From positions 160,001 through 224,000 of the forward strand of contig JBHLMN010000001.1 in NCBI GenBank assembly GCA_048938105.1: a stretch of DNA of 64,000 nt. The letters run 5' to 3'. Position numbers and translations under genes: made by a program. Positions 11,666-33,810 of this stretch are shown one piece after another; the stretch's first letter is position 1; each line of letters opens with the position of its first letter. This DNA is from Promethearchaeota archaeon (GTDB lineage Archaea; Asgardarchaeota; Heimdallarchaeia; Hodarchaeales; Hodarchaeaceae). A model generated the notes under the pieces. It was not told the DNA's origin. It did no database searches and saw only the letters and a list, made by a program, of their open reading frames with translations.

Positions 11666-14218
11666 CTATCCTGAAAATATGATTAAAAATTTTTTCAATA
11701 TTTTTAAGATAATAACTTGTGAGGTCAAAAATAGTAATATTATTAAGATTAAGAACAGGAATAATGGGAAACTCCAGCTAATACTTTCACGGCTAAGATT
11801 GTTGCTATATATACTATTATTAACAATAGTGGTGTTATCCGAATCGATCAGCTGAATACCAGAACGGCCATTGTTATAAATTATATTGTTTGAAATAAAA
11901 CAATTATCTGAGTTTTCCAGATAAATTCCATAGAAACCATTTTCAAAAATGATATTATTCTTAATTTTACTATTATTTGAAAATTCCAGAAAAATACCAG
12001 TCCAACTATTATTGAAAACAGAATTCTTGATGATAGAAGTATTACCTGAAATATCTAAGTGAACACCATTCCATTTGTTATTAGTAATGGTGTTGTTAAT
12101 AATGATGCCATTACATGAATAATCCAGGCGAATCCCATCTTTACTATTGTTTGAAATGGTGTTGTCAGCAAGAATGCAAGTTTCTGAATTATTTAGTCTA
12201 ATTCCATAACGATTGTTATTTAACACGGAATTATTAGCAATTAGGCTGTTCCCCGAGGACCCTAGAAAAATACCAGTATATGTATTGTTGACAATAGTAT
12301 TTTCGATAAGAATGCTATTAGCGGAATAATCTAAGTGAATACCCCTCCCTTTATTGTTGGAAATAATATTATTCATAAAAGTGTTAGAATCCGAAGAATC
12401 TAACCAAAGACCATATCTATTGTTGTTAGAAATGGTATTATTAACAATGGTACTGCTGCACGAATAAATTAACTGGATTCCAGATTCAATGTTATTATAG
12501 AAGGTATTATTGACAATAGTACAATGATCTGAAGAATATAGGTGAATGCCTGACCAACTGTTATTATAGATGGTATTCGTGGAAAAAATGTTACCATAGG
12601 AGGAAAAAAGGTAGATACCATCTTGATTATTCTTGAAAATGGTATTGTTGATAATAATGTTATCAATTGAAGAAGAAAGAATAACACCGTACTTGATGTT
12701 ATTAGCAATGGTATTATTGACAATGGTACTTGAGTTCGATGAAGATAAGTAGATACCGTGAGGATTATTAAACAAAGTATTTATGTTAATAATGTTATTA
12801 AGTGAAGAATCTAAGAAGATACCTGACCAACTGTTATCAAAAATAGTATTAGTAATAATATTGTTGATACTTGAAAAAGATACGTAGATACCATGAATGT
12901 TATTAAAAATGGTGTTATTAACACAAGTATTTGAATCCGAAAACGATAAAAAAACTCCATTACTGTTATTAGTAATGGTATTGTTGATAATGGTGTTGTT
13001 AACTGATGAAGACAGGGAAATACCATACTTGGTGTTATCAAAAATGGTATTACAATTAATAGTACTTGAATTTGTTGAGGATAAATAGATACCATGAATG
13101 TTATTGAAAATGGTGTTATTAGCACAAGTATTTGAATCCGAAAACGATAAAAAAACTCCATTACTGTTATTAGTAATGGTATTGTTGATAATGGTGTTGT
13201 CAACTGATGAAGATAGGGAAATACCATACTTAGTGTTATCAGAAATGGTATTACAATTAATAGTACTTGAATTTGTTGAGGATAAATAGATACCTGCCCA
13301 ACTGTTATTAATAATAGTATTGTTAACAATAGTGTCGGCAACTGCAGAAGAAAGGAAGATACCATGAGGATTATTAGAGATAGTATTGTTGACAATAGTG
13401 CTATCAACTGAAGAATTTAAATAGATACCTGACCAATTGTTATTAGTAATAGTATTGTTAACAATAGTGTCGGTAACTGCAGAAGAAAGGAAGATACCAT
13501 GAGGATTATTAGAGATAGTATTGTTGACAATAGTGCTATCAACTGAAGAATCTAAATAGATACCTGACCAATTGTTATTAGTAATAGTATTGTTAACAAT
13601 AGTGTCGGCAACTGCAGAAGAAAGGAAGATACCATGAGGATTATTAGAGATAGTATTGTTGACAATAGTGCTATCAACTGAAGAATTTAAATAGATACCT
13701 GACCAATTGTTATTAGTAATAGTATTGTTAACAATAATGTCGGCAACTGAAGAAGAAAGGAAGATACCATGAGTATTATTAATAATTACATTGTTTGTAA
13801 TATTACTATTTGTTACATTAGAGAGAAATATTCCACGTAATCCCCCTATTAAGAGACAATTGCTGATTCTGAAATAATATTCAGTATTAAAGATACCAAT
13901 CAAAACAATTGATCCAGAACCAATGATTTTCAAACTATCTATACAATAGGGATTAAATACTGTTCCATTTCCCCGCCAGCCTTTTATTTTCGCCTGATTA
14001 CTAAAATCAGCATTACCGTCGATTCTAATAGGATCAGAATCATTTACTTGAATTAAATATAATTTATTATGAGGAAAGTCGTAGATATTGTGTTCAAACT
14101 GGTGCAAATTTGATGTGTTTTCGAAGATCTGTTCATATTTGCCGTTTAAGAAGAAAGCACTTAAAACAACTATTGTGATCAACGTAAGATTAGATACATT
14201 TTTTTCCAAACCTATCAC
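11666..14218 (-). CDS. Cell-surface right-handed parallel beta-helix (NosD/PbH1 repeat) protein
   Basis: N-terminal hydrophobic segment, GWRGNGTVFNPYCI motif, about 30 NNTIxNNxxGIxL coils, C-terminal TM helix followed by a basic tail. Confidence 0.9.
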   Translation of the reverse strand: MIGLEKNVSNLTLITIVVLSAFFLNGKYEQIFENTSNLHQFEHNIYDFPHNKLYLIQVNDSDPIRIDGNADFSNQAKIKGWRGNGTVFNPYCIDSLKIIGSGSIVLIGIFNTEYYFRISNCLLIGGLRGIFLSNVTNSNITNNVIINNTHGIFLSSSVADIIVNNTITNNNWSGIYLNSSVDSTIVNNTISNNPHGIFLSSAVADTIVNNTITNNNWSGIYLDSSVDSTIVNNTISNNPHGIFLSSAVTDTIVNNTITNNNWSGIYLNSSVDSTIVNNTISNNPHGIFLSSAVADTIVNNTIINNSWAGIYLSSTNSSTINCNTISDNTKYGISLSSSVDNTIINNTITNNSNGVFLSFSDSNTCANNTIFNNIHGIYLSSTNSSTINCNTIFDNTKYGISLSSSVNNTIINNTITNNSNGVFLSFSDSNTCVNNTIFNNIHGIYVSFSSINNIITNTIFDNSWSGIFLDSSLNNIININTLFNNPHGIYLSSSNSSTIVNNTIANNIKYGVILSSSIDNIIINNTIFKNNQDGIYLFSSYGNIFSTNTIYNNSWSGIHLYSSDHCTIVNNTFYNNIESGIQLIYSCSSTIVNNTISNNNRYGLWLDSSDSNTFMNNIISNNKGRGIHLDYSANSILIENTIVNNTYTGIFLGSSGNSLIANNSVLNNNRYGIRLNNSETCILADNTISNNSKDGIRLDYSCNGIIINNTITNNKWNGVHLDISGNTSIIKNSVFNNSWTGIFLEFSNNSKIKNNIIFENGFYGIYLENSDNCFISNNIIYNNGRSGIQLIDSDNTTIVNNSIYSNNLSRESISWSFPLFLFLILIILLFLTSQVIILKILKKFLIIFSG
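12885..13294. repeat. Intragenic tandem repeat, 201-bp unit x2 (67 aa)
   Basis: agataccatgaatgttatt at about 12886 and 13087; shadow ORFs at 12897 and 13098 are near-identical and offset by 201 bp. Confidence 0.9.
13283..13773. repeat. Intragenic tandem repeat, 135-bp unit x about 3.6 (45 aa)
   Basis: accatgag recurs at 13361, 13496, 13631 and 13766 within near-identical flanks. Confidence 0.92.
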
Positions 14219-18026: not shown

Positions 18027-18398
18027 TCTATATAGCTCCTTCAAAGCGTCAAGTGAAATGATTTGTAAAACTGATATTTATTAATTATTTTCTATTTTAT
18101 TTATTATTCAGTTTCTAACAAGGATAGAAGTACTTTATATCAGTTTTTGGTTATAATTTCAAATATTATTGAAGAGTTGATTATTTTAAATTCTATAAAA
18201 ATATTCATCAAATACTTTTTCATAACTGTAGTAATAATATGGCTTTTTGGATTAATAGAAAAAAAAAAGGTCTATTTTATTTTATAATCAATATATCTGT
18301 CAAGATATTATAATCCAAATGCTTTAAAAAAAGAAGATTCAGTCTTAAAAAAGTGATAATAACTAGTTCTACTGCATAAGAGTAAAGGGAAAACTCAT

Positions 18399-19313: not shown

Positions 19314-20021
19314 GTGATGATGACTCTGCAAACTGGAATTATTTTGGCAGGAGGAAAAGGATTACGTTTAAGGCCTTATACTAATGAAATTCCCAAACCA
19401 ATGATAGATTTATCTGGAAAACCATTAGTTGAATGGATAATTGAATGGTTGATATCTAATGGTTTAACAAAAATTGTCATTGGAGTAGCTTACAAGAAAG
19501 AAAAAATCATAAATTGGGTAAAAAGTAAAAATTTTGAATCTGAAATCATTATAAGTCATCATTATATTGAAAGTGGAACAGCAGGAGGAATAAAACATGC
19601 GATAAAGAATGCTAAAATTAAAGACGAGTATTTTCTCGCAATGAATGGAGATGAACTCACAGATTTATCTCTTAAAAACTTTTTTCGTTTTCATGTAGTC
19701 AACAAAAAGATAGTTACGATTTTAGCAACACCTCTTCGCTCTAATTTTGGAGTTATTGAGCTTGGAGATCAAAATATAATAACTGCTTTTAAAGAAAAGC
19801 CAATTATTGATAATATTTTTATTAACTCGGGTGTATACATTTTTAATAATGAGATAGATTCATATCTTCCTTGGGAAGGAGATATTGAAAAAACAACATT
19901 TGTTAAACTAGCCATGGAAAGAAAAATGGTCGCATTTCGTTACTTTGGATTCTGGCGAACAGTTAATACGGAAAAGGATCTTGAAATTATGAAAGATGAA
20001 ATAAAATATTTGAGGCATTAA
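19314..20021 (+). CDS. Sugar-1-phosphate nucleotidyltransferase
   Basis: ILAGGKGLRLRPYT..PKPM, GTAGG, NGD, FKEKP and INSGVY motifs. Confidence 0.92.
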   Translation: MMMTLQTGIILAGGKGLRLRPYTNEIPKPMIDLSGKPLVEWIIEWLISNGLTKIVIGVAYKKEKIINWVKSKNFESEIIISHHYIESGTAGGIKHAIKNAKIKDEYFLAMNGDELTDLSLKNFFRFHVVNKKIVTILATPLRSNFGVIELGDQNIITAFKEKPIIDNIFINSGVYIFNNEIDSYLPWEGDIEKTTFVKLAMERKMVAFRYFGFWRTVNTEKDLEIMKDEIKYLRH

Positions 20022-31348: not shown

Positions 31349-31488
31349 TTTTAATGTCTCGTAAAAATTTAACTTGAGTAAGAGCTCATTAAATCTTGTC
31401 CTTTTTAAAACTGATTTGATGACCTTGAATTTCCAGATATTTGTATTTTATCCTACTCGATAAGATATAGTATGATAGATATAAGATA

Positions 31489-31548
31489 AAAAGCTAATTA
31501 TAAAATCAAGTCTTCAATTCACACTTTTTGAATACGAAAATTGGTGGT
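31489..31548 (+). promoter_or_regulatory. Putative archaeal BRE-TATA promoter and RBS of ugd
   Basis: A-rich BRE-like run, then TTATAAAA at 31498-31505; GGTGGT at 31543-31548 just before ATG31553. Confidence 0.4.
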
Positions 31549-31552
31549 TGGT

Positions 31553-32902
31553 ATGAAAAACCTCAGTGTTGCTATACATGGTACTGGATTCATTGGGTTG
31601 GTCAGTGGTTGCTGTTTTGCAATTAAAGGCTTTAAAGCTATTAATTCAACATTTAATGCAAAAAATTGTGAAAAGATCAATAAAGGTGAGTCACCCTTCT
31701 TTGAGAATGGGCTTTCAGAGTTACTTAGAAAAGCTATTAACTCTGGGAACTTTAAATGTGTTATTGGACGTGAAGATGCGGTTAAAGAATCAGATATCAG
31801 TATGATAGCCGTCGGTACCCCTATGAGAAAGGATAATAGCATTGATTTGCAATTCATCGAACAAACAGCTCGACAGCTCGGTCAAGCTCTTAGAAAAAAA
31901 GACAATTATCACACCCTTGTGGTCAGGTCTACCGTGGTTCCTGGAACCACGAGAAATTTGGTAGGTAGATTGATTGAAGAAGAATCTGGGAAGAAAATGG
32001 GGGAAGATTTCGGTTTATGTATGCAACCTGAATTTTTAGCAGAAGGACGGTCAATTTTGGATACACTGGAACCTGATAGAATTATCATTGGTGAATTAGA
32101 TACTCGTTCAGGGGATATACTCCAACAATTATATGAAGAATTCTATGGTGACCATTTAAAGAAGTGTCCCATTGTACGAATGAATATAGAAAGTGCTGAA
32201 CTCGTTAAATATGGAAATAACTGTCTTCTTGCCACTAAAATATCTTATGCAAACGAAATGTCCAGAATTGCAGAACTAGTGTCTGGTGTTGATGTTGTTC
32301 AAGTTATGAAAGGAGTAGGCCTTGATTATCGCCTTAATGAGGAATTCCTAGGCGCAGGTGTAGGTTTTGGAGGATCATGCTTTCCCAAGGATGTGAATGC
32401 TATTACAGCATTTGCTAAATCACAAGGCTATAATCCACGATTATTTTCTGCAGTTTTAGATATTAATGATGATCAAGCAATGCATGCAGTCGAGTTACTT
32501 CAAGAAGAGATTCCAGATTTAACAAATAAACGTGTCGCTCTTTTAGGGTTATCTTTCAAGCCTGGCACCGACGATATGAGATATGCGCCTTCTATCCGCA
32601 TAGCTAATCAATTACTTAAGCATGGTGCCACAGTTATAGGTTATGACCCAGTTGCAGAAGAAGCAGCAGAAAAAGTATTAGGTAATTCAATTCTTTATGC
32701 GGGAGGAATTCAGGAAGCTCTTGAGAATACTGATGCTGCAATTGTAGTTACGGAATGGAACGAAATTGCCTCAATTAAAGCTGAAGTTTTTAAAAAATGC
32801 ATGAAAACACCTATTGTTATAGATGGTCGTAGAGTTTATAACCCCACAACCTATAAAGATCATGTGACTCTTCTTAGTTTTGGTAGAAAGGAAAGAACTT
32901 AA
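31553..32902 (+). CDS. ugd: UDP-glucose 6-dehydrogenase (AglM-like)
   Basis: GTGFIG, AVGTP, RSTVVPGT, PEFLAEG, GFGGSCFPKD and GLSFKPGTDDMR motifs. Confidence 0.9.
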   Translation: MKNLSVAIHGTGFIGLVSGCCFAIKGFKAINSTFNAKNCEKINKGESPFFENGLSELLRKAINSGNFKCVIGREDAVKESDISMIAVGTPMRKDNSIDLQFIEQTARQLGQALRKKDNYHTLVVRSTVVPGTTRNLVGRLIEEESGKKMGEDFGLCMQPEFLAEGRSILDTLEPDRIIIGELDTRSGDILQQLYEEFYGDHLKKCPIVRMNIESAELVKYGNNCLLATKISYANEMSRIAELVSGVDVVQVMKGVGLDYRLNEEFLGAGVGFGGSCFPKDVNAITAFAKSQGYNPRLFSAVLDINDDQAMHAVELLQEEIPDLTNKRVALLGLSFKPGTDDMRYAPSIRIANQLLKHGATVIGYDPVAEEAAEKVLGNSILYAGGIQEALENTDAAIVVTEWNEIASIKAEVFKKCMKTPIVIDGRRVYNPTTYKDHVTLLSFGRKERT

Positions 32903-32970
32903 CTTAATATTGTTTATTAGTTTAATCTTTGCATAGGAAATAGCAATCTAAACCTTAGTCTGGAATTTTA

Positions 32971-33810
32971 ATGCCCCAAAAGACCCGAATTACGATTACA
33001 ATTGATCCTGACATTGTTAAGCAAATTGACGCCGAAATTGATGGAGTATTGATTCGTTCTCGTAGTGAAGCAATCGAAAAATTTGTCAAGCAATATTTAG
33101 GACAACAAAGAATTGCTGTAATTCTTGCAGGGGGGAATCCCGATTCATTACGTACCCTAGAAACAGCAGATTACAGACCCTTACTACCTATTAATGACAA
33201 GACTCTTGTTGAGTACATTATTGATAAGATCATCGCAGCTGGTTTTCAAAAAATCGTCATTATAGGTCAATCAAGTTTGATTAAAGCTATTTATTCTGTT
33301 ATAGCGCCAAATAAACCTTTATTGGAATCAATAGAGTTTATAGAAGAATCTGAATCCTTAGGAACAGCAAAAACGTTGGAACTTTCGCGAAGTTTAATTA
33401 AGAATGATTTCCTTATAGTTCCATGTGATACATATTTTGATTTCAATCTCCAAGATCTATATAATTTCCATCTGCAACAGAATACTTTAGCAACCTTTGC
33501 GATTTATAGTCGTACTTCCTTTGATAGCAAATATAAGGGGATTGTAGAGATGGACGGCTTTCGAATCGTCTCGCATGAAGAAAAACCTAAAGAACCCAAA
33601 AGCCATTTAATTAAAACAATGATTGGTATCCTGTCACCACAAATCTTTGAATATATTCCTCCTGGCCCAGTTGAATGGAGGATTGAACAGGAACTTCTTT
33701 CCCGACTTATTGAACAAAAAAAAGTGCTAGGATATCCTGTTGCAGGAGAATGGTTTAATATTCATACTTTACAAGACCTAACGATGTTGAAATCGTATTT
33801 AGGATATTGA
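32971..33810 (+). CDS. Ribbon-helix-helix domain fused to a degenerate nucleotidyltransferase domain
   Basis: N-terminal RITITIDPDIVKQID...SRSEAIE (RHH), followed by VILAGG, LGTA, VPCD and EEKP (NTP transferase). Confidence 0.8.
   Translation: MPQKTRITITIDPDIVKQIDAEIDGVLIRSRSEAIEKFVKQYLGQQRIAVILAGGNPDSLRTLETADYRPLLPINDKTLVEYIIDKIIAAGFQKIVIIGQSSLIKAIYSVIAPNKPLLESIEFIEESESLGTAKTLELSRSLIKNDFLIVPCDTYFDFNLQDLYNFHLQQNTLATFAIYSRTSFDSKYKGIVEMDGFRIVSHEEKPKEPKSHLIKTMIGILSPQIFEYIPPGPVEWRIEQELLSRLIEQKKVLGYPVAGEWFNIHTLQDLTMLKSYLGY

Follow-up and report, generated by a model that had tools for sequence, protein, structure and literature searches.

A NikR-type ribbon-helix-helix protein with a nucleotidyltransferase-like domain as a candidate regulator of ugd in a Promethearchaeota genome

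In a 64,000-nucleotide stretch of a Promethearchaeota archaeon genome (assembly GCA_048938105.1, contig JBHLMN010000001.1, positions 160,001 to 224,000; hereafter the window, whose own numbering is used throughout), the gene at 32971-33810 encodes a ribbon-helix-helix (RHH) DNA-binding domain joined to a domain of the sugar-nucleotidyltransferase (NTase) fold. From the comparison of its sequence and surroundings with those of its relatives, we consider it likely that this protein, the fusion, is a one-component regulator that combines a NikR-type RHH with an enzyme-derived NTase sensor and acts on an array of short boxes at the promoter of ugd, a UDP-glucose 6-dehydrogenase-like gene. Most likely, it serves as a local switch for this neighbouring ugd. 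On balance we also lean towards seeing here the first candidate archaeal transcription factor dedicated to nucleotide-sugar supply, belonging to a widespread and unnamed family of DPANN and some Asgard archaea in which the catalytic activity of a sugar-nucleotidyltransferase would have been lost repeatedly and its fold turned into the ligand-sensing part of a repressor with a NikR-type RHH, acting on phased 7-bp boxes, the gene having moved behind ugd in Hodarchaeales-type genomes and the operator having shifted to GTATGAT on the ugd promoter. Particular to the window are the rare Asgard branch, the relocation of the gene behind ugd and an operator on the ugd promoter with the half-site box of NikR. 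The features concerned are listed in Table 1.

Table 1. Features of the ugd-fusion locus in the window
Feature	Position	Strand	Basis
Candidate operator, phased heptamers ATAAGAT 31460, GTATGAT 31470, ATAAGAT 31481	31460..31492	+	cross-species footprint
ugd, UDP-glucose 6-dehydrogenase-like, proposed target	31541..32902	+	three UDPG_MGDP_dh Pfam domains; NCBIfam
ugd-fusion spacer, 68 bp	32903..32970	+	boxless
Fusion gene, RHH + NTP_transferase-like domain	32971..33810	+	840-nt open reading frame, 279 aa; Pfam; AlphaFold2 model
NikR-type RHH domain, residues 6-45	32986..33105	+	Pfam RHH_1, N-terminal profile against PDB, AlphaFold2 model
Sugar-nucleotidyltransferase-like (GT-A/Rossmann-like) domain, residues 49-271, proposed ligand sensor	33115..33783	+	PF00483, Foldseek
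Degenerate signature loop LAGGNPDSLRTLETADYRPL, residues 52-71	33124..33183	+	alignments to 19314 paralog and GMPPB

Box arrays and linkage to ugd

The array at the ugd promoter was recognised only by cross-species footprinting, a generic repeat finder run on three local spacers having returned nothing convincing. When the promoter of the window was aligned with those of four Hodarchaeales-type relatives, the five sequences were found to have diverged except for a single invariant block, GTATGAT-N4-AT[AG]AGATAAA (31470-31490), which is preceded at a 10-bp phase by one or two more units of the form RTAWGAT. Four such units spaced 10-10-11 are present in the loci L008 and L010, and three in the window, where the array (31460-31487) runs into a TATA-like, A-rich stretch some 60-90 bp ahead of the ugd ATG. 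Both the composite block, at up to one mismatch, and the three-unit phased array are unique in the 5.85-Mb genome, the latter being absent from five block-shuffled genomes, and no further phased array was found in the other intergenic regions of the window or in the rest of the genome. On this comparison, the candidate operator region would narrow from 31350-31552 to approximately 31455-31495. The invariant box GTATGAT is identical to the half-site of the enterobacterial NikR consensus GTATGAT-N13/14-ATCATAC (PMC545781), the operator of E. coli NikR being GTATGA-N16-TCATAC (PMC7055735); since NikR is also the closest characterised relative of the RHH of the fusion (see below), the box equals the half-site of the nearest RHH relative.

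Fusion genes with a promoter of their own show a second type of box. In the loci L002, L003 and L004 (approximately 15-17 kb each, both strands), there is a single exact copy per locus of the palindrome TAGTAWTACTA, 13-37 bp before the start codon of the fusion gene; the core is the 7-bp palindrome GTAWTAC, present in 2-6 copies per upstream region. In 21 own-promoter loci, for which 90 bp upstream were taken from each and the expectation was derived from the rest of the loci, 64 cores were counted in 1,890 bp against 2.4 expected, an excess of about 26 fold (Poisson 4e-66) for which the A+T content of the upstream DNA (74% versus 59%) cannot account. Most of the box spacings (39 of 44) are 10 or 11 bp, four sites at 11-10-11 being typical, and such a period of one helical turn is the arrangement that RHH dimers in tandem call for. 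The phased boxes adjoin the fusion gene in all but one of the 21 loci, and the DPANN box GTAWTAC resembles the delta-proteobacterial NikR sites GTGTTAC/GTAACAC (PMC545781). Two GTAATAC-type boxes, 11 bp apart, also stand just before the ATG of the archaeal fusion P0065 (L006, 6880-8345), in which the NTase loop is canonical (GxGTR...PK) and which may represent an active enzyme-repressor form of the family.

The same boxes were considered as operators in the window and rejected. The palindrome TAGTAWTACTA has no exact copy there, its matches at one mismatch lying in a repetitive beta-helix coding sequence (11.7-13.8 kb) and, unphased, at 18229, and all clusters of the GTAWTAC core are inside coding sequences. 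The copy at 18229-18239, TAGTAATAATA, differs at one position from the DPANN-type box and is situated in the divergent spacer before an operon of a glycosyltransferase family 2 (GT2) gene, the NTase gene at 19314 and an epimerase gene; alone and unphased, it is probably due to chance. The repetitive beta-helix surface-protein sequence (11666-14218, minus strand) carries multiple near-matches to A/T-rich palindromes, with TAGTAATAGTA at 135-bp intervals, and is a source of false positives in motif scans.

The association of the fusion with ugd extends well beyond the window. Among the degenerate-loop loci of Asgard and DPANN archaea, a ugd-family gene is present within a few kb of the fusion gene in 22 of 26, mostly directly adjacent and then either divergent from it or upstream on the same strand. 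Gene order was compared around twelve homologous loci, and the layouts are given in Table 2. In the DPANN-like locus L004 (6474-7000), the divergent target is the rmlC-B-D-A operon of the dTDP-rhamnose pathway in place of ugd, with the box type unchanged, indicating that the family is not tied to one pathway. In L006, a NUDIX hydrolase gene follows the fusion gene, with ribosomal and SecY genes nearby.

Table 2. Gene order around fusion genes and identity to the fusion of the window
Locus	Identity	Layout
Window	100%	ugd then fusion, same strand, 68-bp gap
L001 (= L009)	85%	ugd then fusion, same strand
L008	87%	ugd then fusion, same strand
L010	77%	ugd then fusion, same strand
L011	70%	ugd then fusion, same strand
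L002	57%	ugd head-to-head with fusion, 103-bp spacer
L003	47%	ugd-NTase-epimerase-epimerase operon head-to-head, 92-bp spacer
L004	38%	rmlC-B-D-A operon head-to-head, 68-bp spacer
L005	50%	canonical NTase upstream, ugd convergent downstream
L012-L015, L017, L019, L021, L027 (DPANN)	42-46%	ugd head-to-head with fusion
L006 (canonical loop, archaeal)	~33%	glycan context absent
L007 (canonical loop, bacterium resembling the Candidate Phyla Radiation)	~32%	glycan context absent

In the window, the best NCBIfam models for the ugd product are AglM/TuaD, and the cutoff of the subfamily NDP-sugDHase is passed. The reading frame as called mechanically begins with TTG at 31541; the ATG codons of the orthologs and a GGTGG motif resembling a Shine-Dalgarno sequence point to ATG 31553 as the likely true start. 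Neither repeats nor boxes were found in the spacer that separates ugd from the fusion gene, which measures 35-79 bp in the close orthologs and has a weak GG about 10 nt before the ATG. A UDP-N-acetylmannosamine-dehydrogenase-like gene follows the fusion gene.

These data bear on the proposal, made in the preliminary description, of a one-component regulator that controls the glycan island. The core of that proposal, the regulator itself, is strongly supported by comparative genomics through the linkage to ugd, the phased boxes and the association of a NikR-type RHH with a NikR-type half-site. Control of the whole island, in contrast, overreaches, since the array is restricted to the ugd promoter in the window as in the whole genome, an indication that the regulon comprises ugd alone in this genome.

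The RHH domain and the altered NTase domain

The preliminary description had read the gene as an RHH-NTase reading frame placed after ugd on the same strand, with a signature loop and a catalytic Lys altered relative to the intact paralog at 19314, and had made the reading depend on an N-terminus folding as an RHH. All of this is borne out. The RHH_1 model (PF01402) gives 25.4 bits, above its cutoff of 20.5, and NTP_transferase (PF00483) is matched with an E-value of 2.5e-22. The AlphaFold2 model (146-row alignment; predicted local distance difference test, pLDDT, 93.2; predicted template modelling score 0.84) begins with an extended strand followed by helices at residues 13-21 and 31-43, the layout of an RHH monomer, with block pLDDT values of 79-93 over residues 1-50. 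The remainder of the model resembles the UDP-glucose pyrophosphorylase (UGPase) tlr0611, RmlA, VTC1 and GMPPB (Foldseek, template modelling scores of about 0.7, probability 1.0). A hexapeptide-repeat domain was found neither by Pfam nor in the model, the chain stopping at residue 279, right after the NTase domain. The homodimer prediction scored 0.36 against a mark of 0.42 and was used as evidence neither way.

The RHH is related to that of NikR. When a profile of 22 N-termini was compared with the PDB, the best solved relative was the RHH of E. coli NikR, aligned along its full length (E 3.6e-7), followed by P. horikoshii NikR and CopG. The beta-strand of the fusion reads R6-x-T8-x-T10, helix 2 has an RSRS N-cap, and the DNA-reading positions R6, S30, R31 and S32 are invariant or nearly so among the orthologs. 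In NikR, the residues of the R-x-T-x-T strand reportedly make the base contacts. This strand is common to NikR (PDB 1q5v, 2hzv) and to the fusion, and so is the general plan of an RHH ahead of a C-terminal domain, which binds a ligand and oligomerises in NikR (PMC7055735) and would do likewise in the fusion. The two proteins nevertheless differ in several respects: the C-terminus is an ACT-like nickel-binding tetramerisation domain in NikR and an NTP_transferase fold in the fusion, the presumed ligand is a sugar nucleotide instead of a metal, and the boxes are in tandem at 10-11 bp whereas the half-sites of NikR are separated by 13-16 bp. The NCBIfam models of NikR reach only 19-20 bits on the fusion, for cutoffs of 83 and 175, in a match confined to the RHH. 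A genome-wide profile scan returned neither a NikR nor any other NikR-type RHH, leaving no alternative binder of that type for the boxes.

In the NTase domain, the fusion has LAGGNPDSLRT...DYRPLL where the unfused paralog (19314-20021) has LAGGKGLRLRP...IPKPMI, and the signature G-x-G-T-R-x-x-P...P-K is thus replaced by GGNPDSLRT...YRPL. The replacement motif GGxPxxL...[YF]RPL is conserved in about 60 Asgard and DPANN orthologs, which argues against random decay of the loop. The EKP motif, previously described as retained, is indeed present as E204-K205-P206, but only its E and P are invariant in the orthologs, where the middle residue is K, R, T or H.

GMPPB and VTC1 are among the best matches of the fusion in both sequence and fold. 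In VTC1, pyrophosphate is held by Gly9, Thr12 and Arg13 or, alternatively, by Lys23, and Asp111, Glu195-Lys196 and Asp219 are critical for catalysis (PMC9168903). These positions were mapped onto the fusion through a HMMER alignment to GMPPB (Table 3).

Table 3. Positions of VTC1 and their equivalents in the fusion
VTC1	Fusion	State
Gly9	G55	kept
Gly11	P57	changed
Thr12	D58	changed; acidic in most orthologs
Arg13	S59	changed; variable in orthologs
Lys23	R69	changed; Arg invariant in subfamily
Asp111	D153	kept
Glu195-Lys196	E239-Q240	E kept, Lys lost
Asp219	N263	changed; Asn invariant in subfamily

The equivalent of VTC1 Asp219 is an Asn in GlmU as well. The pocket residues G131, T132, D153, E204, P206, W261 and N263 are invariant or nearly so in 40 orthologs, so that the grip on pyrophosphate appears lost while the pocket for base and sugar is kept, a pattern expected of a binder and not of a catalyst. 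Judged by the substitutions at positions defined in the literature as pyrophosphate-binding or catalytic, the NTase domain of the fusion appears to have lost catalysis. With sugar-1-phosphate nucleotidyltransferases such as RmlA, GDP-mannose pyrophosphorylase and the CugP-type UGPase tlr0611, the fusion shares the fold, the Pfam family and the pocket motifs LGTA, D153 of 'PCD', E-x-P and W-x-N; unlike them, it has neither the GxGTR loop nor the Lys, carries an N-terminal RHH and falls below all equivalog cutoffs.

Non-catalytic nucleotidyltransferase paralogs are known in GalF and in the gamma and epsilon subunits of eIF2B. A further case, GMPPA, binds the product GDP-mannose (PMC11228364) and is, as the fusion would be, an NTase fold that has lost catalytic residues and serves as a regulator, but the fusion lacks its beta-helix domain and has a DNA-binding RHH instead. 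In its proposed working the fusion resembles both NikR and GMPPA, while belonging to neither family. Another parallel is offered by the trigger enzymes PutA, which has an N-terminal RHH, and BirA, which double as repressors and in which an enzyme fold is likewise linked to a DNA-binding domain and controls the pathway it belongs to. By analogy, those fused proteins that have a canonical loop may act in this manner, whereas in the subfamily of the fusion the catalytic signature is lost, which makes the domain more likely a pure sensor.

Proposed mechanism and competing explanations

The mechanism that we infer from these sequence comparisons would be as follows. Two subunits would contribute one N-terminal RHH each to the ribbon that reads DNA, and the RHH dimers of the oligomers would fill the phased 7-bp boxes that run into the TATA-like element of the ugd promoter, their occupancy hindering the binding of TATA-binding protein (TBP) and transcription factor B (TFB). 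Arrays of four boxes would suggest four such dimers. As the pocket is kept and the residues that grip pyrophosphate are lost, the sensor domain probably binds an NDP-sugar (or a sugar-1-phosphate) without turnover, and its ligand state would modulate the occupancy of the boxes. Transcription of ugd, and probably that of the fusion gene itself, would thereby be set as a feedback on nucleotide-sugar supply; the two genes are probably co-transcribed, in which case the loop would be autoregulatory. The simplest model would be co-repression by an NDP-sugar as end product, the identity of the ligand and the direction of its effect being guesses. The mechanism is likened to that of NikR on account of the RHH dimers that, in the latter, flank a tetrameric ligand-binding core (PMC7055735).

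Several observations weigh against this regulator. The residues of the RHH strand and the type of box do not track each other cleanly, L002 having the RxTxT strand together with GTAATAC boxes, which contradicts a simple code in which the strand residue (T or S) would determine the box type. In the promoter of the window, only one unit is an exact GTATGAT, both flanking units being the weaker ATAAGAT, and the 3' ATAAGAT may simply be the TATA box. Regarding the sensor, the replacement loop is strongly conserved, and R69 and K134 are basic, the latter nearly invariant, such that an unusual catalysis is possible in principle. Finally, the base-reading position E126 looks like that of the GDP-mannose enzymes, its equivalent in VTC1, Asp80, contacting N1 of guanine, whereas the genomic context is one of UDP-sugars.

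The catalytic question gives rise to one competing explanation, in which the fusion would be a trigger enzyme with two functions, comparable to PutA or BirA, that still makes an NDP-sugar by means of the non-canonical R69 and K134 while its RHH autoregulates the operon. The strong purifying selection on the replacement motif and the pocket is in agreement with it, as is the fully canonical loop kept by 22 of the 202 fused members; the occurrence of a canonical loop together with boxes in L006 makes an enzyme-repressor ancestor plausible. We nevertheless hold it to be unlikely for the fusion itself. Across the fusion and its orthologs, the pyrophosphate-binding Thr has given way to Asp or Glu, the Arg to a variable residue and the second Gly to Pro, and in the fusion Q240 and N263 occupy the positions of a critical Lys and Asp. 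Its cousins have suffered deletions in the loop; moreover, the same loci or operons also contain genes for canonical NTases, and this genome has six such enzymes.

The adjacency of canonical NTases, frequent in these loci, could also be understood if the fusion were a non-catalytic regulatory or scaffold subunit of such an enzyme or of Ugd, acting from protein to protein in the way of GalF or GMPPA, with an RHH used mainly for dimerisation and with boxes due to a different factor or to the basal promoter. Inactive NTase paralogs do regulate active ones, as GMPPA does (PMC11228364), and the 3' box overlaps the A/T-rich TATA-like element. This explanation appears improbable to us, given that helically phased box arrays follow the fusion gene across phyla, that GTATGAT agrees with the half-site read by the nearest RHH so far characterised, that R6, S30, R31 and S32 are invariant or nearly so, and that the genome holds no other NikR-type RHH by our scan. 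Finally, the fusion could be a normal, active sugar-1-phosphate nucleotidyltransferase whose N-terminal extension is incidental, which is what public annotation implies and what the intact fold would allow. We give this very little credence: about 200 cluster representatives share the extension, which is a genuine RHH, the signature motif is absent, and the NCBIfam enzyme models, 25 of which are listed, are all far below their cutoffs (82 bits against 292 for the best). We therefore retain the one-component regulator and judge it likely to be a type of ligand-responsive RHH repressor whose sensor is a pseudoenzyme.

To our knowledge, almost nothing has been established on how archaea control their supply of the activated sugars that go into cell-surface glycans, and for Asgard archaea nothing at all. 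The family described here, which the databases label throughout as active enzymes, provides a candidate regulator together with its proposed target gene (ugd) and a narrowly defined DNA site, all of them accessible to tests in vitro without cultivation, and it would be a clear example among prokaryotes of a pseudoenzyme taken over to sense a small molecule. Should the ligand be an NDP-sugar, the protein and its operator could serve as a nucleotide-sugar biosensor.

Relatives, distribution and further observations

Relatives of the fusion were sought exhaustively with HMMER among 1.84 billion cluster representatives. Of the 150 best matches, the majority align from residue 3 or 4 of the query, which implies that these relatives have the RHH too. 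A significant RHH N-terminus was detected in 202 of 267 proteins collected. By a simple pattern, 72 of these 202 have the YRPL-type replacement, besides the 22 with canonical loop and Lys, and the remainder have other degenerate or shortened loops, including deletions. The subfamily is recognised by the hallmarks AVILAGGxPxxL...[YF]RPL, PCD[TH]YFDF, LGTAKT and WFNIH, and its members come from Asgard genomes and from many DPANN genomes (Aenigmatarchaeota, Parvarchaeota, Micrarchaeota), near-identical proteins bearing the names Hodarchaeales, Hodarchaeota or Promethearchaeota. Public sources call the family 'sugar phosphate nucleotidyltransferase' or 'NDP-sugar pyrophosphorylase', and no description of the RHH-NTase architecture was found in the literature searched, an absence that concerns that literature only.

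The fusion is common in DPANN and rare in Asgard archaea, where a match at E <= 1e-40 was obtained in 5 of 300 sampled genomes, this one counted, and in 2 of 19 other genomes of the same genus. This patchy presence suggests that the fusion travels with variable glycan islands, possibly by horizontal transfer. In the genome of the window it is present in single copy beside six unfused NTase paralogs. In a FastTree phylogeny of 193 sequences, at least 12 switches between canonical and degenerate loops were counted, of which at least 6 are forced by well-supported branches, and every member of the well-supported clade of the query has YRPL; it is a quick tree, with loop classes assigned by pattern and the motif columns kept in the alignment.

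Two minor observations concern the ends of the protein. The C-terminus (33787-33810) reads ...LKSYLGY*, and two RHH microproteins of a sulfate-activation operon (60858 and 61308, minus strand) end in ...LEKLGYL* and ...LEKLGYT*; an 'LGY' tail as a link between them and the fusion was dropped, the resemblance being loose and not conserved past the closest fusion orthologs, with few reading frames of the genome ending in this way. At the other end, three YRPL-type relatives, P0058 and P0122 (413-414 aa) and P0061 (279 aa), have a different RHH-like N-terminus, MDRTTIQISENLRKNLK..., the two longer forms with about 100 additional aa ahead of the sensor domain, which suggests that the DNA-binding module has been swapped.

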